From a bacterium (GTDB lineage Bacteria > Bacillota > Clostridia > Oscillospirales > Acutalibacteraceae), in NCBI GenBank assembly GCA_963661495.1, contig CAVLCA010000012.1:4450-68449 (forward strand): a stretch of 64,000 nucleotides of DNA, read 5' to 3'. The notes below the pieces were generated by a model. That model was not told the DNA's origin. It searched no databases and worked only from the letters and a program-made list of their open reading frames with translations. Each line of letters opens with the position of its first letter. Within the stretch, counting starts at the first letter, position 1. Shown here piece after piece: positions 1 to 20,797 of the stretch. The position numbers were made by a program, and so were the translations under genes.

Positions 1-339
1 TAACTGATAGTCCTGAACGCTGTAACCGCCCTTCATATTCATCAACTTCATATCAGTGATAGCTTCATCAGCGTTATTAGTTGTTTTATAACCTACATAA
101 ACAGCTCTTTTTGTTGAAAGCAAATTATCTGCGCCGTCGTTAAGGTTATTGTCGATTACCTCATAGTCATTGTCGGTAAGCCACTTTTTGGCTTCTTCCT
201 CCGTTTTGCCGTAGCTGATAATCATTTCTTTAACATACTTTTTGCCGTTGAATGTTGCGGCAAAAGCACTTGTGCAGGTGGTTACGCAAAGTGTAACCGC
301 AAGCACAACGCTAATTAATGTACTTAAAAATTTCTTCAT
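1..339 (-). CDS. 5' part (113 codons) of a further member of the tandem surface-protein paralog family (subfamily A); runs off the left window edge
   Basis: Own translation from ATG at 339: MKKFLSTLISVVLAVTLCVTTCTSAFAATFNGKKYVKEMIISYGKTEEEAKKWLTDNDYEV...MKLMNMKGGYSVQDYQ. It is colinear with the N-termini of ORFs 383..2635 and 2628..4859. GGAGG RBS at 347-351. Confidence 0.85.
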   Translation of the reverse strand, partial: MKKFLSTLISVVLAVTLCVTTCTSAFAATFNGKKYVKEMIISYGKTEEEAKKWLTDNDYEVIDNNLNDGADNLLSTKRAVYVGYKTTNNADEAITDMKLMNMKGGYSVQDYQL

Positions 340-382
340 ATTTTTTCCTCCGTTGCCATTAGCTTTTTCGGTAATTTATCCG

Positions 383-2635
383 TTAAGCATTTTGCTTCTT
401 TGTTTTTTTCTTTCCGGTAACCGTACCAAGGTAAAACGCCACAGCGGCTACAACGATTGCAACACCGCCACCGATGAGTGCATATGTTCCGTTTGAAATT
501 GCACTGCCGGCAAATGCGCTTGCGTCTGTACCGTAGAAAAGATAGATACCGTCATTTGAATCGGCATATGTATAACCGGCTTTTTTGTTTGTAAGATTTT
601 GAGCGGCACTTTCGCAGAAGATTGAAAGCGGTGTGCTGTCGTTCGGCAAATCGCTATTGCCGACCTGAACTGTAAAATCTGTTGTTATCGGGTCGCCTGC
701 TGACTTATCCTTAGTGGTGTACAGTGCCACCCACTGTTTGCCGACATCACCGTTCAAATCGCCGTAGTCGCCAAGGAGTTTATTGTTATCCTTAACCATT
801 CCCTGTTCTTCTCTGTTGCACTTTACAGCAGTATAATAGGTATATGTTTTTTTGTCGTTTTCGTCCACACCCTGGTTCACCATATGCAACGGAATCGGTG
901 TAAACTCAACATTATAATACGCTTTTACATCCTGATATGTGCTCCAAAGTGTTGCAGCTGCTAACACAAGGGTAACGCAAGTTACCGCAATACTCGCATA
1001 ACATACCGTCTTTTGAAATGTCTTTGCAGTTCCTATGCTCTTATTAAGTCTATAAATTTGCACTTCCTTTTCACCTGACTGCTTAAATAGTTCCTTCGCT
1101 TCGTTACTTAATCCGTCAGTAACTTTTTGACCGCCTTTTGATACTAAATCTTTGGATTCTTGGGCTAATTTATTAATATTAGCTGTCGTATCACTAATAA
1201 AGTCTTTCATAGCAGCTTTAGTAGCACTGTTAAATACCCAAGCAGCGGTTGTAGCAACAAGTCCGGCACCGAAACAACAAAGCAAAACCAATGATGTGGT
1301 TGAAATATTGTCGCTCAAACCGTTCACTGCGTTTTCACCTGTTGCCGATTGAAGCTTGTATGCCTCACCCGTAAGTGCAACTTCATCGGTAAAAACCGTT
1401 CTGTCTACACCGCTGTAAACTGAAACATTTAACGATTTAACAGAATCCACATCTGTTTCCTCAACTCCCTGCTGTAACGCTTCGTCGTTGTTTATGCCAA
1501 GACCTACGATTTGATACATTGTTAAGAAATCAAGGCAAGCCTTTTGACCGTTTGACAAAACGGAAACAAGCGGATAAAGCATATATCTGTCGCTGCCCTC
1601 AAGATCGTAATCACCACTCGTAATCAAATCAAGGAGTGTAATATCGTCATTTTTCAATGTTTTAAGAAGTTCATACTGAATACCTGCAGCAACCCAGTTT
1701 TCATCTTCAAAATCAGCGTTTGCCGACTTGTATGCTTCTATCTCTTCGCTTGTACTTGTAACAGAAATGTCTGCATTTGTATATTTTTCAAGAAGTGTTT
1801 TGTACTCGTCAAGCTTTGAAGCTATCGTTTCAGCATATTGATCGTATTGAGTTGCAAGTTTCTTTGTAGCTTGATTTACTGTAAGGTCATCCTTATCCAT
1901 AAGTTCATCAAGCATTTCATCGTAAGTTTTTGCTTTATTATACCTTTCAAACCAGAGTTCGTCGCTGTCGTCAGCCGCCGTTGCAATAGTTTGCTCTATA
2001 GAAAGAACAGCTTCTGCATTGCCCTGCATAAGAATGGTTGTCATATCGCCAACCTTTGCTTTTTCGTCATCGCTCAAAGCATTGTATTCTTCATCTGTAT
2101 ACTCTTCTCTTACTCGATTGAGTAAAAGGTCGCCCATATACTGCTCTGTGTCGTCATCATAAAGCATATTAAGCATATCGTGAGCCGCAATTGCACGACC
2201 CTTGTTTGCTTTGTAATTATCTCTGTATTCCTGAACAGCAACTTTGAAATTGCTGAAAAAGTTCTTAATGCTTTCCTTTTGCTCAGAGAGAAGCATTTGA
2301 TAATCCTGAACGCTGTAGCCGCCCTTCATATTCATAAGCTTCATATCAGTGATAGCTTCTTCTGCATTTTCTGTTGTTTTGTAACCGAGGTAAACGGCTC
2401 TTTTTGTTGAAATAATATCGTCGGCACCGTCGTTGAGGTTGCTGTCGATAACTTCATAACCGTTGTCGGTAAGCCATTTTTTGGCTTTCTCAGCCGTGTC
2501 ACCGTAGCTGATAATCATTTCCTTAACATATTTATTGCCGTTGAATGTTGCGGCAAAAGCACTTGTGCAGGTGGTTACGCAAAGTGTAACCGCAAGCACA
2601 ACGCTGATAATCGAACTGAATAATTTTTTATACAT
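383..2635 (-). CDS. Uncharacterised three-span surface protein, paralog subfamily A (750 aa)
   Basis: Signal peptide ...LAVTLCVTTCTSAFA|A. Hydrophobic spans at about aa 445-468, 544-566 and 717-739. Lys-rich tail GKKKTKKQNA. The ATG overlaps the stop of the upstream paralog (ATGTATAA at 2628-2635). AAGGAG RBS. Confidence 0.9.
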   Translation of the reverse strand: MYKKLFSSIISVVLAVTLCVTTCTSAFAATFNGNKYVKEMIISYGDTAEKAKKWLTDNGYEVIDSNLNDGADDIISTKRAVYLGYKTTENAEEAITDMKLMNMKGGYSVQDYQMLLSEQKESIKNFFSNFKVAVQEYRDNYKANKGRAIAAHDMLNMLYDDDTEQYMGDLLLNRVREEYTDEEYNALSDDEKAKVGDMTTILMQGNAEAVLSIEQTIATAADDSDELWFERYNKAKTYDEMLDELMDKDDLTVNQATKKLATQYDQYAETIASKLDEYKTLLEKYTNADISVTSTSEEIEAYKSANADFEDENWVAAGIQYELLKTLKNDDITLLDLITSGDYDLEGSDRYMLYPLVSVLSNGQKACLDFLTMYQIVGLGINNDEALQQGVEETDVDSVKSLNVSVYSGVDRTVFTDEVALTGEAYKLQSATGENAVNGLSDNISTTSLVLLCCFGAGLVATTAAWVFNSATKAAMKDFISDTTANINKLAQESKDLVSKGGQKVTDGLSNEAKELFKQSGEKEVQIYRLNKSIGTAKTFQKTVCYASIAVTCVTLVLAAATLWSTYQDVKAYYNVEFTPIPLHMVNQGVDENDKKTYTYYTAVKCNREEQGMVKDNNKLLGDYGDLNGDVGKQWVALYTTKDKSAGDPITTDFTVQVGNSDLPNDSTPLSIFCESAAQNLTNKKAGYTYADSNDGIYLFYGTDASAFAGSAISNGTYALIGGGVAIVVAAVAFYLGTVTGKKKTKKQNA

Positions 2636-4859
2636 TGGCTTTCTCCTTCTTTTTTCTCTCTACACTTCTGCCTACAAAGAATGCTGCAACCGCAACCGCA
2701 ACAGCCGATACGCCACCGATAAATGCGTACATTCCGTTTGAAAACGCACTTCCTGCAAATGCGTTCTCGTCTGCACCGTAGAAAAGGTAGATACCACCCT
2801 TTGAATCGTTATATGTGTAGCCCATTTTTTCATTTGTAAGATTTTGTGCAACGCTTTCGCAGAAAATCGAAAGCGGATTACGGTCATCCGGTATATTTGT
2901 GTCTTTATACTGAACAACCATATCGGTTGTTATCGGGTCGCCGGCGGCTTTGTCCTTGGTAGTGTACAGTGCCACCCACTGTCTGCCGACATCACCGTTC
3001 AAATCGCCGAAATCCTCAAGAAGCTTGTTGTTATCGTTTACCATTCCCTGCTCCTCTCGGTTGCACTTAACAGCCGAGTAATATGTAAACACCTTTTCGT
3101 CATTTTCATCGACGCCCTGATTTACCATATGGGACGGAATCGCAGTAAATTCAGTGTTGTAGTACGCTTTTACATCTTCGTAAACTCTCCAAAGCGAAAC
3201 GAGCATAAGCACGATTGTAACGCATGATATGATTATTCCGGCTGTGAAAAGCACTTTTGACATAGCAGCAGCACTTTTTGAAGAAGCTTTGGATTGAACA
3301 TATTTTTTATGAAAATCATTCGCTTCGTTTTCGAGAGCCTCGGCTTTTTCACCTTCTATTAATTCGTAAGAATCTGACAATTTTAATTCATATTTATTAT
3401 AGAAATCCTTTGAAGCTTTCTTCAAATTTTTAGATAAATGACTGTAATAACCGCTAAGAGAAAATGTGGCAAGCGTTGCAAGAGCCGAAACACCGAAAGA
3501 ACAATAGAAAATGAGCGATAATGTGGAAATGTTATCCGTCCACTTTTCCGTCGGGTTTTTGCCTGATGAATTTTGAAGCGTGTACGCCTCGCCCGTCAAA
3601 GCAACATCACCGTCAAAGAACGAGCGGTCAATACCCTCGTAAACAGAGTAAGTACCCTCTTCTTTTGAAACTGCTTTGCCTATTTTATCCATAGCCGCTT
3701 TAACAGTTTCGTCATTGTTCAAACCGATTGCCATAAGCTGTTGCATCGGCAAGAAGTCAAGACAGGCTCTTTGACCTTCGGTGAGCACCGATACAAGCGG
3801 ATAAAGCATATATCTGTCGGCATTTTCCACATCGTACTCATCGCTGTAAATCAAATCGTAAAGCGAAACTTCGTCGTTCTCCAACGATTTTGTAAGCTCG
3901 TACTGAGTTCCCGCCGTAAACCAAACGGAATAGTCAAAGTCCTCGTGTGCCTTTTGATACGCTTCAAGCTCATCTTCCGTGCTGTAAAGAGTTATATCGG
4001 TATTTGTATAATTTTCAAGATAAGATTTGTATTGAACAAGGGCTTCCGCAATTTTCTTTGCGTCATCGTCATATTCGATAGCAAGCTCTTTGGTCGCCTG
4101 TTTTAATGTAATATCGTCATTATTCAAAGCGTCACTAATCATATCGTCATAGGTCTTTGCATCTTGATATCTTGTCATCCAAAGCGTGTCGTTGTCGTCC
4201 GTTGCAAGAGCGATAACTTGCTCCATCGCCAACACGGCATTGCCGTTTGCCTGCATAAGAATTGTCGTCATATCGGCAACTTTTGCCTTTTCGTCGTCAG
4301 ACAAAGCATTATATTCCTCGTCCGTATACTCCTCTTTTGTTTTGTTGAGCAAAAGGTCACCGAGATTTTGCTTCGTGTCGTCGTCATACATCATATTGAG
4401 CAAATCGTGAGCCGCAATTGCACGCTGCTGACCTGCATTATAGTTGTTTCTGTATTCTTTAACGGCAACCTTAAAGTTGTTAAAAAATGCTCTGATATTG
4501 CTTTTTTGCTCATCAAGAAGCATTTGATAGTCCTGAACGCTGTAACCGCCCTTCATATTCATAAGTTTCATATCGGTTATAGCCTCGTCAGCGTCGTCGG
4601 TCGTTTTATAACCGATGTAAACTGCTCTTTTTGTTGAAAGTTTGTTATCTGCGCCCTCGTTGAGATTGTAATCAAGAATTTCATAATCGTTATCGGTAAG
4701 CCATTTTTTAGCCTCGTCTGCTGTGTTACCGTAGCTTATAATCATTTCCTTGACATACTTTTTACCACTAAACGAAGCCGCAAAGGCACTTGTGCAGGTG
4801 GTAACACAAAGTGATACCGCCAGCACTATACTAATCAAAGCGCTCCAAAATTTCTTCAT
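2628..4859 (-). CDS. Uncharacterised three-span surface protein, paralog subfamily A (743 aa)
   Basis: Same architecture as 383..2635. The N-terminal about 440 aa and C-terminal about 190 aa are colinear with it. The loop between spans 1 and 2 is unrelated. Confidence 0.9.
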   Translation of the reverse strand: MKKFWSALISIVLAVSLCVTTCTSAFAASFSGKKYVKEMIISYGNTADEAKKWLTDNDYEILDYNLNEGADNKLSTKRAVYIGYKTTDDADEAITDMKLMNMKGGYSVQDYQMLLDEQKSNIRAFFNNFKVAVKEYRNNYNAGQQRAIAAHDLLNMMYDDDTKQNLGDLLLNKTKEEYTDEEYNALSDDEKAKVADMTTILMQANGNAVLAMEQVIALATDDNDTLWMTRYQDAKTYDDMISDALNNDDITLKQATKELAIEYDDDAKKIAEALVQYKSYLENYTNTDITLYSTEDELEAYQKAHEDFDYSVWFTAGTQYELTKSLENDEVSLYDLIYSDEYDVENADRYMLYPLVSVLTEGQRACLDFLPMQQLMAIGLNNDETVKAAMDKIGKAVSKEEGTYSVYEGIDRSFFDGDVALTGEAYTLQNSSGKNPTEKWTDNISTLSLIFYCSFGVSALATLATFSLSGYYSHLSKNLKKASKDFYNKYELKLSDSYELIEGEKAEALENEANDFHKKYVQSKASSKSAAAMSKVLFTAGIIISCVTIVLMLVSLWRVYEDVKAYYNTEFTAIPSHMVNQGVDENDEKVFTYYSAVKCNREEQGMVNDNNKLLEDFGDLNGDVGRQWVALYTTKDKAAGDPITTDMVVQYKDTNIPDDRNPLSIFCESVAQNLTNEKMGYTYNDSKGGIYLFYGADENAFAGSAFSNGMYAFIGGVSAVAVAVAAFFVGRSVERKKKEKANV

Positions 4860-4895
4860 TCTTTTTCCTCCGTCAAATTATGCAACCGTATGCCG

Positions 4896-7163
4896 TTAAG
4901 CATTTTTCTTCTTTTTTCCTTTGTTTCTGTTCTTTAACTTTTGGAAAAGTACATCAACAGCAACACCCATAACGGCACCTACACCAACGGCGATTGCCAT
5001 ATTTCCGCTTGAGAAAACCGAACCTACAGCCAAAGTTTCTCCTCTGTCAAAGTAAATATATGTTCCGTTTGCGGAATCTTTTTTGCCTGTGTAATCCTTT
5101 GAAGTAATGTTAAGAGCCGACTCTTCGCCAAAAAGATTTACGCTGTCGTAATCCAGAGGGGCATTGGATGATCCCTTAACAATTTTCATATCGGTTGTAA
5201 TCGGTTCACCAACAGATTGATCCTTTGTGTAGTAAAGAGTGAGCCAACCAACCGTACCCACAAAGTTATTCAAATCGCCCGCATTGCCCGAAAGGCTCGG
5301 CACGTAGTTATATGCAACATAGTCGTCCCCGTTGTCGGTACTTACAGTGTCAACAATATGATTTGGAATTGACGAATACTTTGCTGTTTGCGGTTCGTTT
5401 TCAGCAAACAATGTGTAAAGAGCCATACCGATTGAAATAAGTGTAAAAATAACCGTTACCGCAAGGAAGAACGCTCTTATTCCCAATATAACCTTACCGC
5501 CCGTTGTAGAGGCAATTGACGAACCTTTGCCGTAAGACATATTGGCAAGTTTTGAAGAGACTGTTCTTGTTGCTCGCTCGGTATAAGTTTCATCACATAT
5601 AATATTTTCAAACACTAATTTAGAAACTTTAGCTGACTCAACATGATAGCGGAACATTGCATTTGCCGAAGTTCTTGTTGCGGAGCCGATTGTAGTATCA
5701 AGTCTATGTAAAAACGCAGTTATTCCGAGATATATTGAAGCCGAAACCACCGCAGGAACAACATAAAATGCCCAAAAATCGTACCATTTATAGTCGCCGG
5801 CTTTTTGCGGTTGGAAAACTCTATCGAACAAATCCTCCGACCAACTCTTACCGCTTGAAGTGTATTTTTCGGTTGTTGCACTTGTCAAAGCAACGCCGTC
5901 ATCAAAAAGGCTTCTGTCTACGCCTTCGTAAATCGAAACGCTGTCATAACCCGAAAGGAGTTCGCTTACTTCGGCAAAGTCATCTTTTTTTGAATCGTCG
6001 CCGTCAATAATCACACGGGATATAACCTGCTGAAGACCGACATTTGTTACCTGTGCACAAAGCTTTTTACCCATAAAATAAGCAAGTGAGTAAAGTTCTG
6101 TATCATCAACTTCGCTCTCGTCACGCATAAAGAAATCGAGCATTGTGCCGTCACCGTATTCAACGCCGTTAAGATATTCAATAAGAACAGCATCCGAAAT
6201 GTCATTGGTTGCCGACTGAACCTCAATATTCTTTTCAAGCACTTCATTGAGCGCAGTTTCCGACATACCTTCCGTTACATCGGACGAAGTCGGAGCGTCT
6301 TCAACCTGCTCTGTAATTGCTTGAGAATTGAATATGAGTTTGCCGTTTTTCTCTGTGAAGTACTTAGTTTTAACAGCACTGAGGTTTTGATAAAATGTAT
6401 TCCATGTAAGACGAATAGTATCTGCCGAAGTACCGTAATCAGCCGCTAAAGCCTGATAAGCCTTGTTTGGAGTAGGATATGAATCCATATACAAATCCAA
6501 AAGGAAATCTTCATCCGATTCTGCCATCTTTTCAATCCACTTTTTATCGTTTGAGCTTTCACCCGCAATAAACAAAAGCTGTTGAATGTTCACAATAAAT
6601 GACGAATAACCCTGCATAAACACTTTGGTTATATCGGTCGTGTCCTTCAAATCGCAGTTGAGAAGATAATCGCCCATATAGGTTTGTGAATCGTCCTCAT
6701 AAAACTTATTAAGTGTGTCGTGTACAGAAACGGCAATTGCCTTACCGTCATTATAGTTTGTTCTGTAAGCGGTAATCATCGGAATCAAGCCGTTAACTGT
6801 AGCCGTTACGCTTTCCTTAATACTGTCAAGAAGTCTTTCGTAATCCGTGTAACTGTACTTACCGTTCATATTCATAGCAGAAAGACCGGTGATAGCTTCG
6901 TTTCTGTTCAAAGTTGATTTGTAGCCCAAATACATTCCGCCGTCCGAAAGACTTTCATTCAAATTGTCCTCCGACATAAGTTTATATCCCTGTGCCTTGA
7001 GCTTTGTTTCTGCTTCATCGGCAGACTTTGCCGTACAAAGAATCAAATCCGAAATATATGATTCCTTACTTGTTGCGGCAAAAGCACTTGTGCAGGTTGT
7101 TACACAGATTGTAACAGCCAAAATCACGCTTATTAACGCACTGAAGAATTTTTTATTTCTCAT
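4896..7163 (-). CDS. Uncharacterised three-span surface protein, paralog subfamily B (755 aa)
   Basis: Signal peptide ...LAVTICVTTCTSAFA|A, then TSKESYISDLILCTAKSADEAE...MYLGYKST..EAIT. Spans at about aa 463-485, 559-585 and 722-742. Tail KNRNKGKKKKNA. Confidence 0.9.
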   Translation of the reverse strand: MRNKKFFSALISVILAVTICVTTCTSAFAATSKESYISDLILCTAKSADEAETKLKAQGYKLMSEDNLNESLSDGGMYLGYKSTLNRNEAITGLSAMNMNGKYSYTDYERLLDSIKESVTATVNGLIPMITAYRTNYNDGKAIAVSVHDTLNKFYEDDSQTYMGDYLLNCDLKDTTDITKVFMQGYSSFIVNIQQLLFIAGESSNDKKWIEKMAESDEDFLLDLYMDSYPTPNKAYQALAADYGTSADTIRLTWNTFYQNLSAVKTKYFTEKNGKLIFNSQAITEQVEDAPTSSDVTEGMSETALNEVLEKNIEVQSATNDISDAVLIEYLNGVEYGDGTMLDFFMRDESEVDDTELYSLAYFMGKKLCAQVTNVGLQQVISRVIIDGDDSKKDDFAEVSELLSGYDSVSIYEGVDRSLFDDGVALTSATTEKYTSSGKSWSEDLFDRVFQPQKAGDYKWYDFWAFYVVPAVVSASIYLGITAFLHRLDTTIGSATRTSANAMFRYHVESAKVSKLVFENIICDETYTERATRTVSSKLANMSYGKGSSIASTTGGKVILGIRAFFLAVTVIFTLISIGMALYTLFAENEPQTAKYSSIPNHIVDTVSTDNGDDYVAYNYVPSLSGNAGDLNNFVGTVGWLTLYYTKDQSVGEPITTDMKIVKGSSNAPLDYDSVNLFGEESALNITSKDYTGKKDSANGTYIYFDRGETLAVGSVFSSGNMAIAVGVGAVMGVAVDVLFQKLKNRNKGKKKKNA

Positions 7164-7200
7164 TTTAACACCATTCCCTATACTTATTATATATAGTCAG

Positions 7201-9489
7201 TTACTGTTGATTAGGAACTGTCTTTTTTCTCTTTTCTTTCATCTTTCGGAAAAGCATATCAATCGCTATGCCGATAACCGCGCCCACACCGATTGAAATC
7301 GCTGTATTTCCGCTTGAGAAAACAGAACCCGTTGTTATTGCCTCACCACGGTTAAAATAAATGTAAGTTCCGTCTACAGAATCCTTAACTCCCGTGTAAT
7401 CCTTTGAAGTGATATCAAGAGCCGTCTCTTCACCAAAGAGGTTTATGCCCTCGTAATCAATAGGCGTCTTAGTTGAACCTTTAACAATTTTCATATCGGT
7501 TGTAAGCGGTTCGCCTGCTGCACTATCCTTTGTATAATAAAGAGTAAGCCAACCTGCCTTACCGACAAAATTGTTCAAATCACTTGCGTTGCCGGAAATA
7601 TTCGGCACAAAATTATATGCAATATAATCTTCGCCGTTGTCGGTAGTCACAGTGTCAACTATATGATTAGGTATCGTGGTATATTCTGCCGTTTGCACTT
7701 CGTTTTCGGAAAACAGTGTGTAAATTGCCATACCGATTGAAACAAGAGTTAAAATAATTGTTACGGCAAAGAAGAATGTTCTGAGCCCCGAAAGAAGTTG
7801 ACCGCCGCTCTTTGTTGAGCCGTCAACCAATGTACCCTTACCGAAAATTGCTCGTGAAGACCTTGATATTTCCTTTGCGTCTGTTGCATATAAATGCGGA
7901 TTGAATTTAATTTTTTTAAAAACCGCTTCCTTACCAATCTCTATTGACTGTCTGTTTACTTCCATACAACTGTTTACAAATTTTTGTTTCGTTTTGCCGT
8001 ATAAATCTTTAATCAAAGTTTTTTCTAAATGATTCGAAATACCGACAATCGTGCCGTAGCATGTAGCTGAAATAACTGTCGGCATAACATAGAATGCCAA
8101 AAAGTCATACCACTTATATTCACCGGCTTTTTGCGGTTGGAAAATTCTGCCAAACAGTCCGTCCGACCAGCTCTTGCCGCTTGAAAGGTTCTTGCTTGTT
8201 GTTGCACTTGTCAAAGCAACGCCGTTTTCAAAAAGAGTTCTGTCTACACCCTCGTAAACCGAAACTTTTTCGTAGCCTGAAAGAATACCTTCAATATTTT
8301 CGTAATCGCTTGCCTGAGCGTCGTCGCCGACAATGGTTAAGCGAGATACGACCTGCTGAAGTCCGACATTTGCCGACTGAGCACAAAGCTTTTCGCCCAT
8401 AAAGTATGCAAGTGTGTAAAGTTCAAAATCATTAACTTCGCTCTCGTCACGCATAAAGAAGTCAAGCATTGTGCCGTCGCCGTATTCCAAACCGTCGAGA
8501 TACGAAATGAGCACACTGTCAACAAAATCACTGCTTGCTTCCTGACCGTCAATACTTGCCGACATTGCGTCAACAGCGTCGTCTGTCGTTGAACTGTCGT
8601 CTAAATTAAACTTATCCGTATCAACGCTGTCAAAAGTTTGATTCATAGCGTCTTCGTTAAATTTAAGCTTGCCGTCACTTTCGGTAAAATATTTGTTCTT
8701 CGTGGTTTTAAGGTTTTCATAAAACACATTCCATGAAAGACGAATGTTGTCTGCCGAAGTGCCGTAATCTGCCGCCAAAGCTTGATACGCCTTGTTCGGA
8801 GTCGGGTAAGAATTGATGTACAAATCCAAAAGGAAATCGTCGTTTGAATCTGCCATTTTTTCAACCCACTTCTTGTCGTTTGAGTTTTCACCCGCGGTAA
8901 ACAAAAGTTGCTGAATATCAACAATAAATGCCGAATAGCCCTGCATAAACACCTTGGTTATATCGGTCGTGTCCTTCAAATCGCAGTTGAGAAGATAATC
9001 GCCCATATAGGTTTTTGAATCGTCTTCATAAAACTTGTTGAGCGTATCGTGAACCGAAACGGCAACCGTTCTGCCCGCTTTGTAATTTGTTCTGTAAGCT
9101 GTAATCATCGGAATCAAGCCGTTGATTGTTGTTGAAACGCTTTCCTTTAAACTGTTAAGAAGATTTTCATAATCGGTGTAACTGTACTTACCGTTCATAT
9201 TCAAAGCCGAAATATCAGTAATGGCTTCACTTCTGTTTGTGGTTGATTTATAGCCCAAATACATACCGCCGTCTGTAAGGCTGTCATTCAAGTTTTCATC
9301 CGACATCAGTTTGTAATCCTGCGCCTTGAGCTTTTTTTCTGCTTCATCAGCAGATTTTGCCGAGCAAAGAACCAAGTCGGAAATGTACGATTCTTTACTC
9401 GTTGCGGCAAAAACGCTTGTACAAGTTGTAACGCAGAGGACAACAGCCAAAATCGCACTGATAATTGCACTTAGCGTTTTTTTACGCAT
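7201..9489 (-). CDS. Uncharacterised three-span surface protein, paralog subfamily B (about 762 aa)
   Basis: Colinear with 4896..7163. The ORF track starts at 9495 (ATG), but the second in-frame ATG at 9489 has better spacing to the GGGGGAG RBS. Both overlap the stop (9482-9484) of the upstream paralog. Confidence 0.88.
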   Translation of the reverse strand: MRKKTLSAIISAILAVVLCVTTCTSVFAATSKESYISDLVLCSAKSADEAEKKLKAQDYKLMSDENLNDSLTDGGMYLGYKSTTNRSEAITDISALNMNGKYSYTDYENLLNSLKESVSTTINGLIPMITAYRTNYKAGRTVAVSVHDTLNKFYEDDSKTYMGDYLLNCDLKDTTDITKVFMQGYSAFIVDIQQLLFTAGENSNDKKWVEKMADSNDDFLLDLYINSYPTPNKAYQALAADYGTSADNIRLSWNVFYENLKTTKNKYFTESDGKLKFNEDAMNQTFDSVDTDKFNLDDSSTTDDAVDAMSASIDGQEASSDFVDSVLISYLDGLEYGDGTMLDFFMRDESEVNDFELYTLAYFMGEKLCAQSANVGLQQVVSRLTIVGDDAQASDYENIEGILSGYEKVSVYEGVDRTLFENGVALTSATTSKNLSSGKSWSDGLFGRIFQPQKAGEYKWYDFLAFYVMPTVISATCYGTIVGISNHLEKTLIKDLYGKTKQKFVNSCMEVNRQSIEIGKEAVFKKIKFNPHLYATDAKEISRSSRAIFGKGTLVDGSTKSGGQLLSGLRTFFFAVTIILTLVSIGMAIYTLFSENEVQTAEYTTIPNHIVDTVTTDNGEDYIAYNFVPNISGNASDLNNFVGKAGWLTLYYTKDSAAGEPLTTDMKIVKGSTKTPIDYEGINLFGEETALDITSKDYTGVKDSVDGTYIYFNRGEAITTGSVFSSGNTAISIGVGAVIGIAIDMLFRKMKEKRKKTVPNQQ

Positions 9490-11914
9490 TCGCATTCTCC
9501 CCCTTGCCGCTCTTTGCCTTTTTCTTTTTGATTGCCTTGCAAACCAAGCAAGAAATTGCTGCTACCACTACCATTGAAGCACCGGCAATAAGTGCATATG
9601 TTCCGCTTGAGAACACACTGCCTGCGTATGCGTTACTGTCAACATCGTAGAAAAGGTAAATACCTTTCTTAGAGTCTGCATATGTGTAGCCTGCTTTTTT
9701 GTTTGTAAGATTTTGAGCCGTGCTTTCACAGAACATTGAAAGAGGTGTGGAATCGTCCGGCACATCGCTCTTGCCGTACTGAACATCAAAATCAGTTGTA
9801 ATCGGGTCGCCTGCCGAGCTGTCCTTTGTTGTATAAAGTGCAACCCACTGTCTGCCGACATCACCGTTGAGGTCACCGTAATCTTCAAGGAGCTTGTTAT
9901 TGTCGGTTACCATCTGTGCTTCTTCTCTGTTGCACTTAACAGCTGTATAATAAGTAAACACCTTTTCGTCCTTGTCGTTTACGCCCTGATTTACCATATG
10001 CATAGGAATCGGTGTGAACTCTGCATTATAGTACTTCTTCAAATCTTGATATGAGCTCCAAAGTGAAGCTACCATCAAACCAATTGTAATACATGAAATT
10101 GCAACCGAAAAACCGGTCATCCATTTTTGCAATGAAGCGTTACCTTTTACAGCGTCGGTTGTTCTGGTGCCAAGGTTTTCACCTTGCAATGTTTTTTGAG
10201 TGTTTGCAATATCGTCAACCGAGTCTGCCATTTGATTTTTAATTGAGTTAGCTACATCATCGCCAACATCACCGACTCTCTCGGCAATTTGTGCTGAACC
10301 GTTTGCAATTTGAACACCCTTCGCACCAGCCTCTTCAAATACAAAACTACTGTCGGAAGAAAAGCTTCTTTCCAATGTCTCTGAAGCAGCACTTACTGCA
10401 TCGTCAAACCGATCTGCTGTTTCGGAAATAGCATTCGATACGGTTTCATGACACATATTAAAATCGGCGTCAGCCAATTTGCTTATATTCACCTTATTGT
10501 TCCAAATAATAGTACTTCTTGTCGTCCAGCTGGCAATTGTTGCCACCATACTAATGCCGGTCAAAACATACAAAAGTTTTGTTGAGCTTGAAATGAATCC
10601 TGTCCAGTTTTCAACAGCAACTTTGTTTGATGAATTTTGAAGTGCATATGCGTCGCCGGTAAGAGCAACATTTTCGGAAAAGATTGAACGGTCCATACCG
10701 GAATAAATCGATACATAATACTTTTCCTCATCAATATCAATGTTCTTTGCAGCTTCCGCAATTGACTTATCGTCATTGATACCCATAGAAACTATCTGGC
10801 TCATTGTGATAAAGCCAAGGCAAATTCTTTGGCCTTTTGTCAATGAAGCAACCAAAGGATAAAGCAAATATGCGTCTTCGCCCTCAACATCATATTCGTC
10901 GCTTGTTACCAAGTCGAGGAGTGATACATCGTCAACTACCAACGACTCTAACAAATTGTACTGAGTACCTACTGTAAGCCAATTAGACATATCAAAATCT
11001 TCGTGCTCTTTTGCATAAGCTTCAATTTCTTCCTGAGTGTTATCAAAAGAAACTCCTGCGTCTGTGTAATTTTTAAGATATGTTGCATACTCTTCAAACT
11101 TCGAAGCGATTGTCTTTGCATCAACATCATATTCTGCCGCAAGTTTTTTAGCAGCTTGGCTGACTGTAAGATTATCGTTTTCCATAAGGTCATCGACCAT
11201 TTCATCGTAAGTCTTTGCCTTTTGGTATCTGTCAATCCAAGTTTTGTCATTATCGTCGGAAGCAAGTGCGATTGCCTGCTCCATAACAAGAACAGATGTG
11301 CTGTTACCCTGCATAAGGATTGTTGTCAAGTCGGCAACCTTGCTTTGTTCTTTCTTTGAAAGAGCCGCAAATTCGTCTTCCGTGTACTCTTCCTTAACCT
11401 TTTGAATAAACAAGTCGCCCAAATATTCTTCTGTGTCGTTATCATACATATGGTTGAGCACTTCAAAAGCGGTGAGAGCACGCTGCTGACCGTTTTTGTA
11501 ATTTTCTCTAAATTCGTTAATTGCAACGATAAAGCTGTTAACAAATTCCTGAATATCAGCCTTTTGCTGTTCAACAAGCATTTGATAATCCTGAACGCTG
11601 TATCCGCCGTTCATATTCATTACTTTCATATCAGTAATAGCTTCGCTTGCCTTTGAGGTTGTTTTGTAGCCAAGATAAACAGCTCTCTTTGTTGAGAATG
11701 TGTCATCGGCGCCGGCATTAAGGTTGTCGTCAACAAACTTATAACCTCTGTTTTGGAGCCAAGACTTAGCGTCAGCTTCTGTTTTACCGTAGCTTAAAAT
11801 CAATTCTTTAACATAGGTCTTACCTGTAAATGTTGCCGAAAACGCCGTGCACGGCTGTAACATACAGGTAAAACAAAGAATAATTGCCACAATAGATTTA
11901 ATCATTTTCTTCAT
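9482..11914 (-). CDS. Uncharacterised three-span surface protein, paralog subfamily A with enlarged loop (810 aa)
   Basis: N- and C-terminal modules are colinear with 383..2635. The inter-span loop is about 133 aa, versus about 65-79 aa in the other paralogs. The start overlaps the 3' end of 11898..13178 by 17 nt. Confidence 0.9.
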   Translation of the reverse strand: MKKMIKSIVAIILCFTCMLQPCTAFSATFTGKTYVKELILSYGKTEADAKSWLQNRGYKFVDDNLNAGADDTFSTKRAVYLGYKTTSKASEAITDMKVMNMNGGYSVQDYQMLVEQQKADIQEFVNSFIVAINEFRENYKNGQQRALTAFEVLNHMYDNDTEEYLGDLFIQKVKEEYTEDEFAALSKKEQSKVADLTTILMQGNSTSVLVMEQAIALASDDNDKTWIDRYQKAKTYDEMVDDLMENDNLTVSQAAKKLAAEYDVDAKTIASKFEEYATYLKNYTDAGVSFDNTQEEIEAYAKEHEDFDMSNWLTVGTQYNLLESLVVDDVSLLDLVTSDEYDVEGEDAYLLYPLVASLTKGQRICLGFITMSQIVSMGINDDKSIAEAAKNIDIDEEKYYVSIYSGMDRSIFSENVALTGDAYALQNSSNKVAVENWTGFISSSTKLLYVLTGISMVATIASWTTRSTIIWNNKVNISKLADADFNMCHETVSNAISETADRFDDAVSAASETLERSFSSDSSFVFEEAGAKGVQIANGSAQIAERVGDVGDDVANSIKNQMADSVDDIANTQKTLQGENLGTRTTDAVKGNASLQKWMTGFSVAISCITIGLMVASLWSSYQDLKKYYNAEFTPIPMHMVNQGVNDKDEKVFTYYTAVKCNREEAQMVTDNNKLLEDYGDLNGDVGRQWVALYTTKDSSAGDPITTDFDVQYGKSDVPDDSTPLSMFCESTAQNLTNKKAGYTYADSKKGIYLFYDVDSNAYAGSVFSSGTYALIAGASMVVVAAISCLVCKAIKKKKAKSGKGENANA

Positions 11915-13178
11915 TTTTCTTCTTACCTTTCTTCTTATAAATTAATAATCCGACTACTACCAAAACGATAATAACCAAGAATACAATTATTGCCTTTATA
12001 TTACCCGAGCTGATTACCGAACCCGACTTATCGCCTTCGGTCTCCTCCTCGGTAGTTGCCTCAGTGGTTTCCTCTTTTTCTATATCAAGATATTCATCGG
12101 TAACTTCTTCAACCGTCGTGCTTTCCTGCTCGGTGGTCGCTTGTGTCGTTTCCTCCGGAACACTCACATTTGCAGTGCCCAAATAAATACCGTAAATTTT
12201 CCTGTCGCCTGCCGAAACACAACTGCATTCGTCTTTGCTTTTTGCAAACGATTTATATTCTGACGATGTTTTTGAAATCGATTTATTTGTTGCCGCATAA
12301 ATTCCTGCCCAATCGCCGAGGGTAAAACTGTCGTTAAACAACTTGCCGTTTGAAATATCAAGCAAGTACGCACCCGACTTGCCGTCTCGGCTGAGTTTTA
12401 CATCGTCGCCGTCAATACCGAGTTCGGTAACGGCTTGCGTTTGGTCCGCCGTTCTTTGATAAGCAATATAAGTCACATTATTATTACTGTCGGATATATC
12501 CTTATCCAAGTAATAATCACAGCCCTTTGATGCCGCCGAATTAAGTGCCTTGGCTTTTGTACTTGCCGTAACCATACACACATTTGAAATGTACTGCTTA
12601 ATACTCGACTCTCTGTACATCAAAAGATAAAGTTCATTGTTGCTGATACCTTTGTCGAAATTAGCAAGTTTGCCGTCATCGGTACGAACCGGTGACGAGC
12701 CGTCATTCCTAAGCGAAACAACGCTGTCTTCGCTCGTAAAGCCCGATACCGTATCAAGTGAGGTAATTCCCTCTCCCGCCGAACTGTCACTTGTGCAATA
12801 AAGATAAATTGCCGAGCCGGAAGTTCCGTTATTTAAATTAACATCCGCAACTAAATTATATGTATGACCGTTTGAAGCAATTGAGCTTTCTTTCTTGTCC
12901 GATACAATAAAATCTGTTATAGCGTTTGAGCCTTTTTTGTAACCCAAATATACCATTGAACTTTTGTTATCGTCCGTAACCAAATTCAAGCTTTGGAACA
13001 TAACCGAATATCCGCTTTTTTCAAGATTGGTTCTTGCGTTTGCTCCCGTTGCAAGAGTAACCTCGGAAATGTAAGATTCCTTGGCAAACGCACACACGGA
13101 GAAACTGTTTATAACCATACAAATCGTAAGCATTATGCACACAATTCCTATACGGCTTTTGTTTATTTTCTTAAACAA
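11898..13178 (-). CDS. Short membrane-anchored relative of the paralog family (about 426 aa from TTG 13178)
   Basis: From TTG 13178: MFKKINKSRIGIVCIMLTICMVINSFSVCAFA|KESYISEVTL..., with RBS GAGGTG at 13187-13192. Two copies of the family N-module. An acidic Thr/Glu stalk, one C-terminal span, and tail KKKGKKKNEEND. The ORF-track ATG at 13235 lies inside the predicted promoter spacer. Confidence 0.8.
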   Translation of the reverse strand: MFKKINKSRIGIVCIMLTICMVINSFSVCAFAKESYISEVTLATGANARTNLEKSGYSVMFQSLNLVTDDNKSSMVYLGYKKGSNAITDFIVSDKKESSIASNGHTYNLVADVNLNNGTSGSAIYLYCTSDSSAGEGITSLDTVSGFTSEDSVVSLRNDGSSPVRTDDGKLANFDKGISNNELYLLMYRESSIKQYISNVCMVTASTKAKALNSAASKGCDYYLDKDISDSNNNVTYIAYQRTADQTQAVTELGIDGDDVKLSRDGKSGAYLLDISNGKLFNDSFTLGDWAGIYAATNKSISKTSSEYKSFAKSKDECSCVSAGDRKIYGIYLGTANVSVPEETTQATTEQESTTVEEVTDEYLDIEKEETTEATTEEETEGDKSGSVISSGNIKAIIVFLVIIVLVVVGLLIYKKKGKKKNEEND

Positions 13179-13225
13179 AATTCCACCACCTCTATTATTT
13201 AAAATTATATATTTATACACACTAA

Positions 13226-13254
13226 ATTTTAACATTATGTTTATAATTTGTCAA
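13226..13254 (-). promoter_or_regulatory. Sigma-A type promoter for the paralog array
   Basis: Minus strand reads TTGACA (13254-13249), a 17-nt spacer, then TAAAAT (13231-13226). It sits in the 245-bp gap after rfbC, about 40 nt upstream of TTG 13178. Confidence 0.6.
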
Positions 13255-13480
13255 TAATTTGACAACAATTAAGTATTGTAAAAAGTTACAAATTAACGCC
13301 CCTGATTTTCAACACTTTTATTTAAATTTTCACCCATTCCACCACACAAAAACACTTTTAAAGCCGTCGTATAATTACAAGACTGTCAAGGCAAAATCAG
13401 TCTATAACTAAAAAATAAAACTCCTCACAGCAGACTGTCAAATCTGCCATAAGAAGTTTGTCAAAAACTCATTCAAAATA

Positions 13481-14023
13481 TCAAAGCATTTTCCAATTTT
13501 TATCTTTTTCCGAAAGATTGAGCACCATGCCGTCTGTAACCGGCCACTGTACGCCGATTGTAGGGTCGTTATATGCAATTCCGCCTTCATCATTTGGATG
13601 AAAGAAATCATCAACTTTATAGCAGAATTCGGCATAGTCGCTCAATACAAGAAATCCGTGAGCAAACCCCTTAGGAATAAAGAATTGCTTTTTGTTTTCC
13701 TCTGTAAGCTCAATGCCATACCATTTTAAATATGTCGGGCTGTTTTCACGCATATCAACGGCAACATCAAAAACAGAGCCTTTTATAACTCTGACAAGCT
13801 TTGATTGCGGATACTTTATTTGTCTGTGAAGTCCGCGAAGAACGCCTTTAGTAGAGGCAGATTGATTGTCTTGAACAAATTTAATGTCAATTCCGGCTTC
13901 TTTCATATCGTTTTCATTGTATGTTTCCATAAAATATCCACGATTATCACCGTGAACGGTTGGGGTAATAACGCAAAGTCCTTCAATCCCACCAACATTT
14001 TTTTCAACTGTAATTTGTCCCAT
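13481..14023 (-). CDS. rfbC: dTDP-4-dehydrorhamnose 3,5-epimerase
   Basis: 180 aa; motifs GDNRGYFMETY, VLRGLHRQ, GFAHGF typical of RmlC. TAATG overlap with rfbD. Confidence 0.95.
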   Translation of the reverse strand: MGQITVEKNVGGIEGLCVITPTVHGDNRGYFMETYNENDMKEAGIDIKFVQDNQSASTKGVLRGLHRQIKYPQSKLVRVIKGSVFDVAVDMRENSPTYLKWYGIELTEENKKQFFIPKGFAHGFLVLSDYAEFCYKVDDFFHPNDEGGIAYNDPTIGVQWPVTDGMVLNLSEKDKNWKML

Positions 14024-14883
14024 TAATAATCTATCTCCTTAAGGTATCTTGACAAAGCGTCTTGCCAAGTCGGAAGCGGATTAAATCCGTTTTCAATAAG
14101 CTTTCGTTTGTCAAGTCTGCTGTTAAACGGTCGCTTTGCTTTAGACAAACCGTATTCTTCTGTCGTCACCGGCTTGACCTTAGTTGAATAACCCGCTTGC
14201 CTGAATATCTCACAAGCAAAATCGTACCAACTGATATATCCACCCTCGTTTGTTGCATGATAGTAACCGTATTTTTCGGTTTCAATCATATCAACAAGAA
14301 GTCGTGCAAGGTCATAAGTATATGTCGGCGTTCCGATTTGGTCGTTAACAACCGTAATTTGCTCATACTTTTTACCAATATTAAGCATAGTTTTAATAAA
14401 ATTATTGCCGTTAACCCCAAAAACCCAAGCTATACGAACAATAAAGTATTTGTCGAGCGTTTCTACAACCGCAAGCTCACCATCTAATTTTGTTTGACCA
14501 TAAACATTAAGAGGTGCATAATCTTTGCAATCAGGCTTCCAAGGTTCTGTTCCCTGACCGTCAAAAACATAATCTGTGCTGATATACATCATCTTGCAGT
14601 TGAGCTTTTTGCATACTTCAGCAATGTTTCTTGTGCCGTCTGTATTTACCGCACGAACCAAAGCAATTTTGTCGTCATCTTCAGCGAGGTCAACAGCCGT
14701 CCAAGCAGCACAATGAATAACTGCATCCGGTTTTTCTTTGCCGATTACTTTCTCGACGCTTTGCCTGTCGGTAATATCCATATCTTTGATATCAACACCA
14801 ACAGCCTCATGCCCTCTTTTAGCCAATTCGTTAACAACATCATAACCGAGCTGACCTTTTGCACCCGTTACCAATACTTTCAT
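14023..14883 (-). CDS. rfbD: dTDP-4-dehydrorhamnose reductase
   Basis: 286 aa; MKVLVTGAKGQLG Rossmann start, YISTDYVFDG and YGQTK motifs typical of RmlD. Confidence 0.95.
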   Translation of the reverse strand: MKVLVTGAKGQLGYDVVNELAKRGHEAVGVDIKDMDITDRQSVEKVIGKEKPDAVIHCAAWTAVDLAEDDDKIALVRAVNTDGTRNIAEVCKKLNCKMMYISTDYVFDGQGTEPWKPDCKDYAPLNVYGQTKLDGELAVVETLDKYFIVRIAWVFGVNGNNFIKTMLNIGKKYEQITVVNDQIGTPTYTYDLARLLVDMIETEKYGYYHATNEGGYISWYDFACEIFRQAGYSTKVKPVTTEEYGLSKAKRPFNSRLDKRKLIENGFNPLPTWQDALSRYLKEIDY

Positions 14884-15903
14884 TTATCTGTTACCGTACA
14901 TCTTTTCATAATAATTTTGATATTCGCCGGAAATAATGGTTTCCCACCACTCTTTATTATCAAGATACCACGCAATCGTCTTTTTAATGCCGTCTGCAAA
15001 CTTCGTTTCGGGAAGCCAACCGAGTTCGTTGTGAATTTTTGTCGGGTCGATTGCATAACGCATATCGTGACCTTTTCTGTCAGCAACATAGGTAATAAGA
15101 CTTTCCGGCTTTCCGAGTTCCTTGCAAATCAGCTTAACAATGTCAATGTTTTTCATTTCATTATGGCCGCCAATGTTGTAAACCTCGCCGACACGACCGT
15201 TATGTATAATCAAATCAATAGCCTTGCAGTGGTCTTCAACATAAAGCCAATCACGAACATTAAGCCCCTCACCGTAAACAGGTAAAGGCTTGTCGTTAAG
15301 TGCATTTGCTATCATAAGCGGAATCAGCTTTTCCGGGAAATGATACGGACCGTAATTGTTTGAGCACCTGCTGATTGTTACAGGCAAACCGTATGTTCTG
15401 TAATAAGCAAGCACAAGCAAATCTGCACCGGCTTTTGAAGAACTGTACGGTGAAGATGTGTGAATAGGTGTTTCCTCAGTAAAAAAAAGGTCCGGTCTGT
15501 CAAGCGGCAAATCACCGTAAACTTCATCAGTTGAAACTTGATGATATCGCCGAATGCCATATTTACGACAAGCATCCATAAGAATTTGAGTGCCGAGAAT
15601 GTTTGTCTTGAGGAAAATGCCCGGGTCTTCGATTGAACGGTCAACATGAGATTCTGCCGCAAAATTTACAACTATATCCGGATTTTCCTCTTCAAAAAGT
15701 TTTTCAACTGTTTCTTTGTCACAAATATCAGCTTTAACAAACCTAAAGTGCGGATTTTCCATTACAGTAGTAAGCGTTGAAAGATTGCCGGCATATGTAA
15801 GCTTATCCAAACAAACGATTCTGTAATCAGGATGTTTTTTCAACATATAAAATATAAAATTCGAACCGATAAATCCCGCACCGCCGGTCACTATAATCGT
15901 CAT
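14884..15903 (-). CDS. rfbB: dTDP-glucose 4,6-dehydratase
   Basis: IIVTGGAGFIGSNF, YSSSKAGADLL. The ORF-track start at 15909 is TTG; ATG at 15903 follows a GGGAGGAA RBS. Confidence 0.95.
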   Translation of the reverse strand: MTIIVTGGAGFIGSNFIFYMLKKHPDYRIVCLDKLTYAGNLSTLTTVMENPHFRFVKADICDKETVEKLFEEENPDIVVNFAAESHVDRSIEDPGIFLKTNILGTQILMDACRKYGIRRYHQVSTDEVYGDLPLDRPDLFFTEETPIHTSSPYSSSKAGADLLVLAYYRTYGLPVTISRCSNNYGPYHFPEKLIPLMIANALNDKPLPVYGEGLNVRDWLYVEDHCKAIDLIIHNGRVGEVYNIGGHNEMKNIDIVKLICKELGKPESLITYVADRKGHDMRYAIDPTKIHNELGWLPETKFADGIKKTIAWYLDNKEWWETIISGEYQNYYEKMYGNR

Positions 15904-15905
15904 TG

Positions 15906-16799
15906 TCAAATTCCTCCCAAAGTTCCTTCCTCAGCTACCTTTTTAAGATACTTGCCATAGTCGGATTTTCCGTACTTTTCCGCCGATTCAATAAGTTTGT
16001 CTATATTAATCCAACCTTTACGCCAAGCAATTTCCTCCGGAGCCGAAATACAAATTGCCTGCCGATTTTGAATCGTTCTGACAAAATCAGCCGCGTCAAT
16101 AAGACTGTCCATTGTTCCGGTATCAAGCCAAGCAAACCCTCTGCCAAGAAGCTTAACATCGAGTTCGCCGCTGTCAAGGTACACTCTGTTAAGGTCTGTA
16201 ATTTCCAATTCACCGCGAGCAGACGGCTTTTGATTTTTTGCATATTCAACACAGCGATTATCATAAAAATACAATCCCGTAATCGCCCACGGCGACTTCG
16301 GATTTTTAGGTTTTTCCTCAACAGAAAGTACTTTCCCGGTTTTGTCAAACTCAACAATACCAAATCTTTCCGGGTCTTCAACATGATAACCGAAAACAGT
16401 TGCTCTGTGATTTTCTTCGGCATTTTCCTTTGCTTTAACGAGAATATCGCCAAATCCGGCACCGTAAAAAATATTATCACCCAACACCATAGCACAACAG
16501 TCATCGCCAATAAAATCCTCACCCAAAGTAAACGCTTGAGCAAGCCCATCCGGAGACGGCTGAACTTTGTATGAAAGCTTCACTCCAAATTGACTTCCGT
16601 CGCCGAGAAGTCGCTCAAAATTCGGCAAATCGTTCGGAGTTGAAATGATTAGGATATCATTTATTCCGGCAAGCATAAGTGTACTCAGCGGATAATAAAT
16701 CATAGGTTTGTCGTATATCGGTAACAGTTGCTTTGATGTTACCATTGTTAACGGGTATAGCCTCGTTCCGCTTCCCCCTGCAAGAATTATACCTTTCAT
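15906..16799 (-). CDS. rfbA: Glucose-1-phosphate thymidylyltransferase
   Basis: [18 protein letters not shown]... The ORF-track start at 16805 is GTG; ATG at 16799 follows an AGGAAAGG RBS. Confidence 0.95.
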
Positions 16800-16836
16800 A
16801 AACACCTTTCCTTAATGGACATAAAAACCACAAAAA

Positions 16837-17955: not shown

Positions 17956-17956
17956 A

Positions 17957-20615: not shown

Positions 20616-20797
20616 AATTCAACCATCCAGTATACTCTTGGAAATTTACAAATAAAAAATAATCTTTTACCTATCTTTCCTTTTAATTTTTTATAATCAT
20701 ATTTATAATATTTTAATTTTTTTACGACAGATAAATATAAATCTTTAAATTCATGTGTTCTGGTCAAGCTTTTTTGTAACATTTCAACCTAATTTTC

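Follow-up and report, generated by a model that had tools for sequence, protein, structure and literature searches.

Tandem families of surface-protein genes that undergo gene conversion include the opa genes of Neisseria, the genes for variable surface proteins of Mycoplasma, and the cwp cluster of Clostridioides difficile, which lies beside a glycan locus. MABP domains, in turn, are associated, in MACPF toxins and ESCRT-I, with the recognition of membranes or envelopes. They have been described as beta-prisms with three homologous subdomains, proposed to recognize membrane or envelope features, and a cell-wall protein of a gut Clostridium with an N-terminal MABP domain has been listed (PMC2881412). 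Here, we analyzed 64,000 nucleotides (nt) of an Acutalibacteraceae genome (positions 4,450 to 68,449 of contig CAVLCA010000012.1, assembly GCA_963661495.1; hereafter, the window), which carry a tandem array of five complete paralogous genes, A to E, for predicted surface proteins with an MABP-like prism, together with a smaller gene, F. A reading made from the DNA alone (the original prediction) had noted a hypervariable segment between the first two hydrophobic spans of every paralogue and had proposed that diversification is focused on the intracellular face, each paralogue coupling a common extracellular module to a different cytoplasmic partner. The contrast between this segment and its flanks is confirmed here, and we favor a different explanation, which we consider fairly likely: the segment would be a weakly constrained, amphipathic cytoplasmic linker that drifts at a near-neutral rate, next to ectodomains that are held by purifying selection and probably also exchanged between paralogues.

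Results

The proteins encoded by A to E, of 743 to 810 amino acids (aa), share one order of regions: a signal peptide, an N-terminal ectodomain (N-domain, approximately 415 to 430 residues), a first transmembrane span (TM1), the loop (65 to 133 residues), TM2, a C-terminal ectodomain (C-domain, approximately 135 to 150 residues), TM3, and a Lys-rich tail. At the N-terminus, a hydrophobic signal sequence ends in the cleavage motif AFA↓A or a similar one. The five loop ranges given originally (Table 1) are in frame and comprise exactly the residues that separate the first hydrophobic span from the second, their lengths are confirmed, and the peptides quoted as bordering the loops of C and D, KWYDFWAFYVVP and KWYDFLAFYVMP before them and IPNHIVDTV after them, were found in the translations. 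The description of the E loop as rich in Asp, Ser, and Ala amounts to a mild enrichment only (9.7% Asp, 11.2% Ser, and 12.7% Ala).

Global alignments of the separate regions in pairs of paralogues revealed loops that are 12% to 29% identical beside flanks that are 56% to 78% identical, with the TM spans intermediate (29% to 62%). Between A and B, identity amounts to 63% in the N-domain, 29% in the loop, and 77% in the C-domain, and the corresponding values for C and D are 72%, 22%, and 74%. The same picture was obtained for 160 family members, in which the loop columns have the highest entropy (3.4 to 3.5 bits vs. 0.9 to 2.7 elsewhere) and the lowest occupancy. The loops of B and E, at 12% identity, align no better than shuffled sequence (z −0.7) and can rightly be called unalignable, but weak residual homology is left between the loops of A and E (z 5.2 to 5.3) and of A and B (z 2.8 to 2.9). 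Likewise, the flanks are conserved overall but not uniformly, with aa 251-334 in C/D and aa 202-450 in A/B at 40% to 54% identity. The helical part of the ectodomain thereby contains a second variable zone, located at window positions 6160-6410 in C (aa 251-334) and at the equivalent position in D, with an indel between the two, as well as at aa 202-450 of A and B. In the loci L004, L003, and L009, this second zone and the loop form a paralogue-specific core that is 99% to 100% identical between genomes.

The evolutionary rate of each region was determined by comparing A to E with their orthologues in the metagenome-assembled genome (MAG) CAVBQD01 (Nei-Gojobori method, codons bootstrapped). 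The ratio of non-synonymous to synonymous substitution rates (dN/dS) was 0.64 for the loop (95% confidence interval [CI] 0.47-0.84), 0.48 for TM1 (0.29-0.78), 0.30 for TM2 (0.15-0.57), and 0.18 for TM3 (0.09-0.31), with 0.10 (0.08-0.12) for the N-domain and 0.08 (0.06-0.11) for the C-domain. When 45 disjoint close pairs drawn from 64 loci were pooled, dN/dS was 0.45 in the loop and 0.13 and 0.11 in the ectodomains. Non-synonymous change is thus about 5 to 8 times slower in the ectodomains than in the loops, and within the loop, the juxtamembrane (0.62) and central (0.64) parts are equally fast. Orthologous loops are 43% to 78% identical where their flanks are 86% to 96% identical. Moreover, loop identity tracks flank identity smoothly, decreasing from 0.83 (flanks above 0.9) through 0.48 and 0.27 to the shuffled baseline of 0.20, which is reached when the flanks are approximately 70% identical or less. 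Between the paralogues of the window, dS ranges from 0.5 to saturated along the whole gene.

By these estimates, the loop is under relaxed purifying selection and not under diversifying selection, and the conservation of the ectodomains reflects strong purifying selection. Since the CI of the loop excludes a dN/dS of 1, its rate is near-neutral, and the paralogues are old, no special diversifying force is needed; with synonymous sites of the window paralogues near saturation, near-neutral drift alone would make the loops unalignable. Neither the estimate for the window genes nor the pooled one therefore supports the proposed focus of diversification on the cytoplasmic side. The proposed coupling of each paralogue to its own partner fares no better, because the loops diverge between orthologues as well and therefore carry no conserved paralogue-specific interface.

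The length and composition of the loop point in the same direction as its rate. Among representatives clustered at 50% identity, the connector between TM1 and TM2 ranges from a turn of 4 to 8 residues (P0264, P0225, and P0233) to 162 residues, and the eight longest loops (140 to 162 aa) contain no Pfam domain, both of which speak against a coupling function. What the loop retains is an amphipathic periodicity at 100 degrees (mean z 1.66 over 121 loops, 36% of them above z 2, relative to shuffled sequences), with no signal at 80, 120, 140, 160, or 180 degrees in the same loops. In the AlphaFold2 (AF2) model of A, the loop forms helices of moderate confidence, which drops along its length. These properties fit a generic amphipathic linker without a conserved docking function.

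The fold of the ectodomain was approached through the smaller protein F, which consists of a signal peptide, two MABP-like beta-prism units, a Thr/Glu-rich spacer of approximately 55 residues, a single TM, and a Lys-rich tail. Its AF2 model has a predicted local distance difference test (pLDDT) score of 77, with low confidence in the spacer, and a Foldseek search against the PDB ranked 2qp2 first (E 9.5e-3, probability 1.0, root-mean-square deviation 5.4, 167 columns) and 3tow, the MABP domain of MVB12B, second (E 0.98). At the sequence level, residues 55-208 of F are 32% identical (E 3e-12) to residues 379-539 of P0420, a MACPF protein (PF01823 at aa 161-343), in which they form the domain after the MACPF domain. 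In BLASTP, residues 20-98 and 626-651 of A are colinear with residues 363-439 and 465-490 of P0420. Profile comparisons using hhalign placed the first of the three prism blades near the N-terminus of A and the other two near its C-terminus (Table 1), with the N-terminal unit of A matching F at 52-111 and 213-274 and, more weakly, at 126-160. The two pieces are contiguous in F, in relatives of 1,300 to 1,700 aa, and in the C-terminal domain of P0420. A direct hhalign comparison of the N-terminal unit of A with its C-domain was not significant (probability 1.5%), and the link between them runs via F and P0420 only.

The three homologous subdomains that characterize MABP domains were recognized here as repeated "DLN-G...IYLYY...G-PIT" units in the alignments of F and P0420 and in self-matches, and both F and A are homologous to a C-terminal domain that is fused to MACPF. 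In Pfam, F and 57 relatives (E ≤ 1) as well as A to E yielded nothing but chance matches to TM or low-complexity sequence, with a copy of Pfam that was not checked for an MABP model; the spacer and tail of F give spurious hits of the RIFIN/Stevor type. The AF2 model of A has pLDDT scores of approximately 90 in the N-domain and 88 in the C-domain, and its full-length version found no match at E ≤ 1e-3 in Foldseek searches against PDB and BFVD; a lack of matches to MABP structures would be expected if the prism of A is discontinuous. Altogether, A to E look like an MABP-like prism into which a helical domain and a hairpin of membrane helices have been inserted, an assignment supported by homology to the MACPF-associated domain and, tentatively, by the fold of the F model, not by a curated profile. 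To our knowledge, this architecture has no earlier description.

The split prism also bears on the topology of the proteins, for which the original prediction of a loop on the cytoplasmic face is supported by computation (signal peptide, positive-inside rule, and Lys-rich tail). As the two stretches of A that would form the prism are parts of one extracellular unit, both ends should face the same compartment, and since the Sec signal peptide places the ends outside, the loop, by prediction, is very probably cytoplasmic. Charge statistics were compiled for 121 members with four clear hydrophobic segments, considering 15 residues on the loop side of the TMs. The loop-side flanks are net positive (K+R 1.8 vs. 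D+E 1.0 at TM1, and 2.5 vs. 0.8 at TM2), the outer TM flanks are net acidic (K+R approximately 1.1 vs. D+E 2.0 to 2.4), the C-terminal tail carries a mean of 5.7 K+R, and the n-region of the signal sequence, before the hydrophobic core, carries a mean of 3.3.

In related arrays, a second process became apparent. Adjacent paralogues in L037, L017, L012, L064, and L004 have ectodomains that are 83% to 97% identical (mostly above 87%), with third-position identity mostly at 75% to 95% in the two profiled pairs (L037 and L017), and loops at random level (amino acid identity 0.18 to 0.35, nucleotide identity 0.42 to 0.48), the borders falling sharply at the inner ends of TM1 and TM2. In L037, for example, the N-domains are 92% to 97%, the C-domains 93% to 97%, and the loops 19% to 30% identical. 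Neutral drift since duplication cannot give homogenized flanks together with random loops. Further mosaics were found between L004 on the one hand and L003 and L009 on the other, where unique central parts are 99% to 100% identical and shared ends 65% to 93%, as well as in P0004, which has almost the same C-terminus as A but is approximately 60% identical to it in the remainder. Within the window, a patch in the C-domain of A (Table 1) is 96% identical to downstream paralogues compared to 91% to its positional orthologue and is the product either of gene conversion or of chimeric assembly. These patterns are most economically read as concerted evolution that affects the flanks and stops at the loop as a block of non-homology, and the conservation of the ectodomains is therefore probably also owed to DNA exchange between paralogues.

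It should be noted that several MAGs with CAV accessions labeled "cleanbin" (L012, L013, L020, L022, and L028) carry this Clostridia-type family under labels such as Bacteroides faecis, Bacteroidaceae, Eggerthellaceae, and Sphaerochaetaceae, and that some "different species" among the CAV MAGs have unique segments that are 99% to 100% identical. This suggests that the records are mis-binned or mislabeled, and the taxon labels of several of these bins were disregarded as unreliable.

Between strains, the loops are stable. The locus L065, a contig of GCA_963595935.1, is 99.47% identical to the window over 12.6 kb, and only 9 of the 67 mismatches between the two lie in loops. Seven of these fall into the B loop (within window 3287-3402), including a fully replaced codon at 3318-3320, and the other four loops hold two together; the differences in the loops involve G, T, A, and C alike and are not adenine-specific. 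Similarly, the DNA of loop and TMs is 99% to 100% identical between L004 and both L003 and L009. No second copy of any loop was found in the 64-kb window, no inverted repeats flank the loops, and no tandem repeats were detected inside them, the long E loop included (Tandem Repeats Finder). We found no case of a loop common to otherwise divergent genes, which led us to reject cassette shuffling. A shufflon or a diversity-generating retroelement (DGR) was likewise rejected, given the lack of inverted repeats and of template copies in the window; a template repeat nearby and adenine-specific differences, as expected for a DGR, were not seen in the window, with no search aimed at a reverse transcriptase.

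The possibility that the divergence is an artefact of frame or assembly was also addressed. Comparisons of the loop DNA in the other five frames yielded nothing convincing (best z 4.3, score 33, without nucleotide support), and loop DNAs of different paralogues are at chance identity; this lack of alternative-frame similarity argues against a compensated frameshift or other frame artefact. The recurrence of the same in-frame loops in independent assemblies speaks against an assembly artefact.

A profile search for the family yielded 1,206 clusters at 50% identity (E ≤ 1e-3), 501 of them at E ≤ 1e-30, with members from gut and rumen MAGs of Clostridia (Acutalibacteraceae, Oscillospiraceae, and Ruminococcaceae) and up to nine copies in a single 22-kb locus. 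Searches with A to E, F, the long relatives, and members with extreme loops against Pfam-A, NCBIfam, and PDB sequences gave nothing above cut-off or at E ≤ 1e-3, and no relevant publication describing the family was found in the literature searched. Relatives of 1,300 to 1,700 aa adjoin many arrays, including L025 (6217-10866), L006, L010, L026, L031, L035, L036, L043, L044, L048, L053, L054, L056, L058, and L063. They combine the N-domain of the family, a hydrophobic block, the C-domain, more prism units, and a long C-terminal region, in which neither a Pfam match nor a C-terminal TM helix was found; their hydrophobic block is continuous over approximately 85 residues and takes the place of the hydrophilic loop.

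Genes A to E and F are all encoded on the minus strand, and neighboring genes of the array either overlap by 8 to 17 nt or are separated by 36 to 37 nt. A terminator-like hairpin after rfbC, together with a sigma-70-like site just before F (Table 1), makes the array look like an operon of its own, the genes of which would be co-transcribed. Because of the overlap between this site and the start listed for F, the real start is probably located about 20 codons further downstream; F homologues mostly have 404 to 455 aa. The array extends beyond the window: L065 continues with at least five more copies at 12297-22253 (750, 761, 747, 734, and 754 aa), and the real array, judged from this contig, therefore has at least 10 members.

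Upstream of the array, rfbCDBA are located at 13481-16805, followed upstream on the same strand by a polysaccharide-synthesis cluster of low GC content (27% to 33%; window 16837-32484, minus strand). Its genes encode a polysaccharide pyruvyl transferase, an EpsG-like polymerase, a flippase-like protein (Polysacc_synt), glycosyltransferases of the GT2 and GT4 families, a PglD-like acetyltransferase, a DegT aminotransferase, and an FrhB/FdhB-like protein. Its composition suggests a horizontally exchanged glycan locus. None of the other large open reading frames (ORFs) of the window (739, 749, 813, 1052, and 1128 aa) is a member of the family.

Table 1. Genes, protein regions, and predicted signals of the array, in window coordinates.
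Feature	Position	Strand	Remarks
Sixth family copy, N-terminal part (first 125 codons)	1..375	−	Family hidden Markov model E 5e-66; gene cut by window edge
Paralogue A	383..2635	−	750 aa; AF2 mean pLDDT 78.5
Paralogue B	2628..4859	−	743 aa; B stop overlaps A start by 8 nt
Paralogue C	4896..7163	−	755 aa; C/D subfamily, ~30% identical to A/B/E
Paralogue D	7201..9495	−	764 aa; C/D subfamily
Paralogue E	9482..11914	−	810 aa; longest loop of the five
Gene F	11898..13235	−	445 aa as ORF listed; first gene of the array
Promoter-like site	13226..13254	−	TTGACA, 17 nt, TAAAAT, extended TG; best sigma-70-like site of the region, head of array
Terminator-like hairpin	13418..13459	−	19-bp stem; after rfbC, parts rhamnose operon from array
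Loop of A	1007..1231	−	aa 469-543; AF2 helical, pLDDT 60-77 falling below 50
Loop of B	3261..3455	−	aa 469-533
Loop of C	5490..5708	−	aa 486-558
Loop of D	7798..8034	−	aa 488-566
Loop of E	10124..10522	−	aa 465-597, 133 aa
TM1	A 1232..1303; B 3456-3527; C 5709-5780; D 8035-8106; E 10523-10594	−	Hydropathy
TM2	A 938..1006; B 3186-3260; C 5418-5489; D 7708-7797; E 10052-10123	−	Hydropathy
A aa 33-100, putative prism blade 1	2336..2539	−	hhalign to F 52-111, probability 98.1%, E 9e-14
A aa 627-706, putative prism blades 2-3	518..757	−	hhalign to F 134-211, probability 88.6%, E 2.7e-6
Patch in A C-domain	420..640	−	221 nt, 20 mismatches vs. otherwise 99.5%-identical L065

Discussion

In the explanation that we favor, a cleaved Sec signal peptide would place the N-terminus outside, and the protein would remain membrane-anchored at the surface. 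Its extracellular part would be a single MABP-like prism in split form, with blade 1 at the N-terminus and blades 2 and 3 near the C-terminus. Between the blades, a helical domain of approximately 330 residues would be followed by a hairpin of two membrane helices, and the protein would end in TM3 and the Lys-rich tail. As the cytoplasmic connector of this hairpin, the loop would need only hydrophilicity, positive charge next to the membrane, and amphipathic helicity, and its sequence and length could drift at half to two-thirds of the neutral rate. In the old paralogues of the window, such drift alone would have erased the alignability of the loops. As a second process, gene conversion may swap ectodomain DNA between tandem copies, stopping where the loops have lost homology.

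Several observations weigh against this explanation. A loop dN/dS of 0.45 to 0.64 is below 1, and some constraint is therefore left, be it on helicity and charge or on a real interface, while pairwise Nei-Gojobori estimates average over sites and could mask a few positively selected positions. The paralogues with homogenized flanks each keep a distinct loop, which is also what selection for loop individuality predicts. The comparison genomes are all short-read MAGs, in which repeat switching during assembly could mimic mosaics. The topology is a prediction, in which TM2 and TM3 have low AF2 confidence and the TM1 of E has only weak hydrophobicity.

A possible but less likely view gives the second process the main part: the contrast would arise mainly from concerted evolution, and the diverged loop, by blocking conversion, would record the true, old age of the duplications. 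The arrays with homogenized flanks argue for this view, above all L037 and the high third-position identity in the flanks, as do the patch in A, the mosaics of L004 and P0004, and the lack of any converse case in which genes with divergent flanks have a loop in common. Against it, dS between the flanks of the window paralogues ranges from 0.5 to saturated, and pairs of orthologues are closer than pairs of paralogues, so that recent conversion is not needed here, and the low dN/dS of orthologous ectodomains already accounts for their conservation; the mosaics, moreover, come from short-read MAG contigs, to which the caveat of repeat switching applies.

The proposal that each loop is a docking surface, diversified to link the shared extracellular module to a cytoplasmic partner of its own, appears unlikely to us. 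It would agree with the presence of loops in all window copies, their residual constraint, their stability between strains, their prediction as amphipathic helices instead of pure disorder, and the unrelated loops with sharp borders that paralogues with homogenized ectodomains keep. A docking surface is hard to reconcile with orthologous loops that accumulate non-synonymous changes 5 to 8 times faster than the ectodomains and keep no motif within an orthologue line, with the equal rates of juxtamembrane and central positions, and with members that manage with a short turn or have very long loops without a known domain. Furthermore, the array, made up of family copies only, contains no gene recognized as a candidate partner. 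The data on orthologues and on loop length thus point to a loop without a specific partner.

Related to this, though more doubtful still, is the idea that the at least 10 co-transcribed paralogues form one hetero-oligomeric surface structure, in which each loop would be a selected identity tag, which could determine the position or the partner of its subunit at the inner face and would also preserve this identity by obstructing conversion. In a wilder variant, the helical domain and hairpin might be a membrane-tethered relative of alpha-helical pore formers, which the prism would aim at neighboring cells.

That the variable segment is extracellular and diversified by phage or immune pressure would suit the most variable part of a surface family expanded in gut bacteria, but this is very improbable given that charge distribution and the parity of membrane spans put the segment inside, that the N- and C-terminal parts form one prism on one side, and that dN/dS is below 1 without excess variation at the strain level. 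We give the least credence to a programmed change of the loop (by a DGR, cassette switching, or a shufflon) or to a frame or assembly artefact, as the sharp borders, the random-level nucleotide identity, and the seven clustered strain differences of the B loop, which would agree with such processes, stand against the single copy of each loop in the window, the lack of flanking inverted repeats, of adenine-specific differences, and of loops common to divergent genes, and the recurrence of the same loops, without convincing similarity in another frame, in independent assemblies.

We conclude that the loop is best regarded as an ordinary, weakly constrained linker and does not constitute evidence for intracellular diversification or paralogue-specific signaling. 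The protein family and the organization of its arrays are new, large, and unannotated, and merit description in their own right. Because MABP domains are tied to membrane or envelope recognition, the family may represent a major system of surface recognition in uncultured Oscillospirales, and its arrays offer a clean natural example of ectodomain homogenization that is halted at a non-homologous block.

The MABP fold is a type I beta-prism with internal three-fold symmetry. Compared to known systems, the closest structural likeness is to MABP domains, with Photorhabdus Plu-MACPF (PDB 2QP2, C-terminal domain) and human MVB12B (PDB 3TOW) as the first two Foldseek matches of the F model, and with three "[DN]LN-x-G...YL-Y" repeats corresponding to the three subdomains of MABP (PMC2881412). 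In contrast to these, the prism of A to E would be interrupted by approximately 520 residues, comprising the helical domain, two TMs, the loop, and approximately 60 extracellular residues before blade 2; the proteins lack a MACPF domain and would be anchored in the membrane of the producer itself. The likeness is further qualified by the lack of a Pfam match, the modest Foldseek E-value of F, and the A model, which had no match.

A second comparison is to alpha-helical pore formers of the ClyA and tripartite types (SmhA/B, Hbl L1, and XaxB), in which a helical bundle is likewise followed by a hairpin of two hydrophobic helices and paralogous components are encoded in tandem. Similarity of the A model to such toxins was not significant (7a26, 7nmq, 6gy7, and 6zzh at E 2.2 to 3.8, probability 0.01 to 0.02). 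Unlike ClyA-type toxins, the array proteins carry a signal peptide, a third TM helix, and a Lys-rich tail, and their usual hydrophilic connector of 30 to 160 residues could not cross a target membrane after translation.

In its genomic organization, the array resembles the opa, Mycoplasma, and cwp families in being a long head-to-tail series (at least 10) of secreted, membrane-bound paralogues with mosaic similarity, and it adjoins a low-GC polysaccharide locus. It differs from them in that the exposed domains are conserved and the variable segment is, by prediction, intracellular; in that the genes overlap or lie 36 to 37 nt apart, are apparently co-transcribed, and show no switching elements; and in that the proteins lack cell-wall-binding and sortase motifs.

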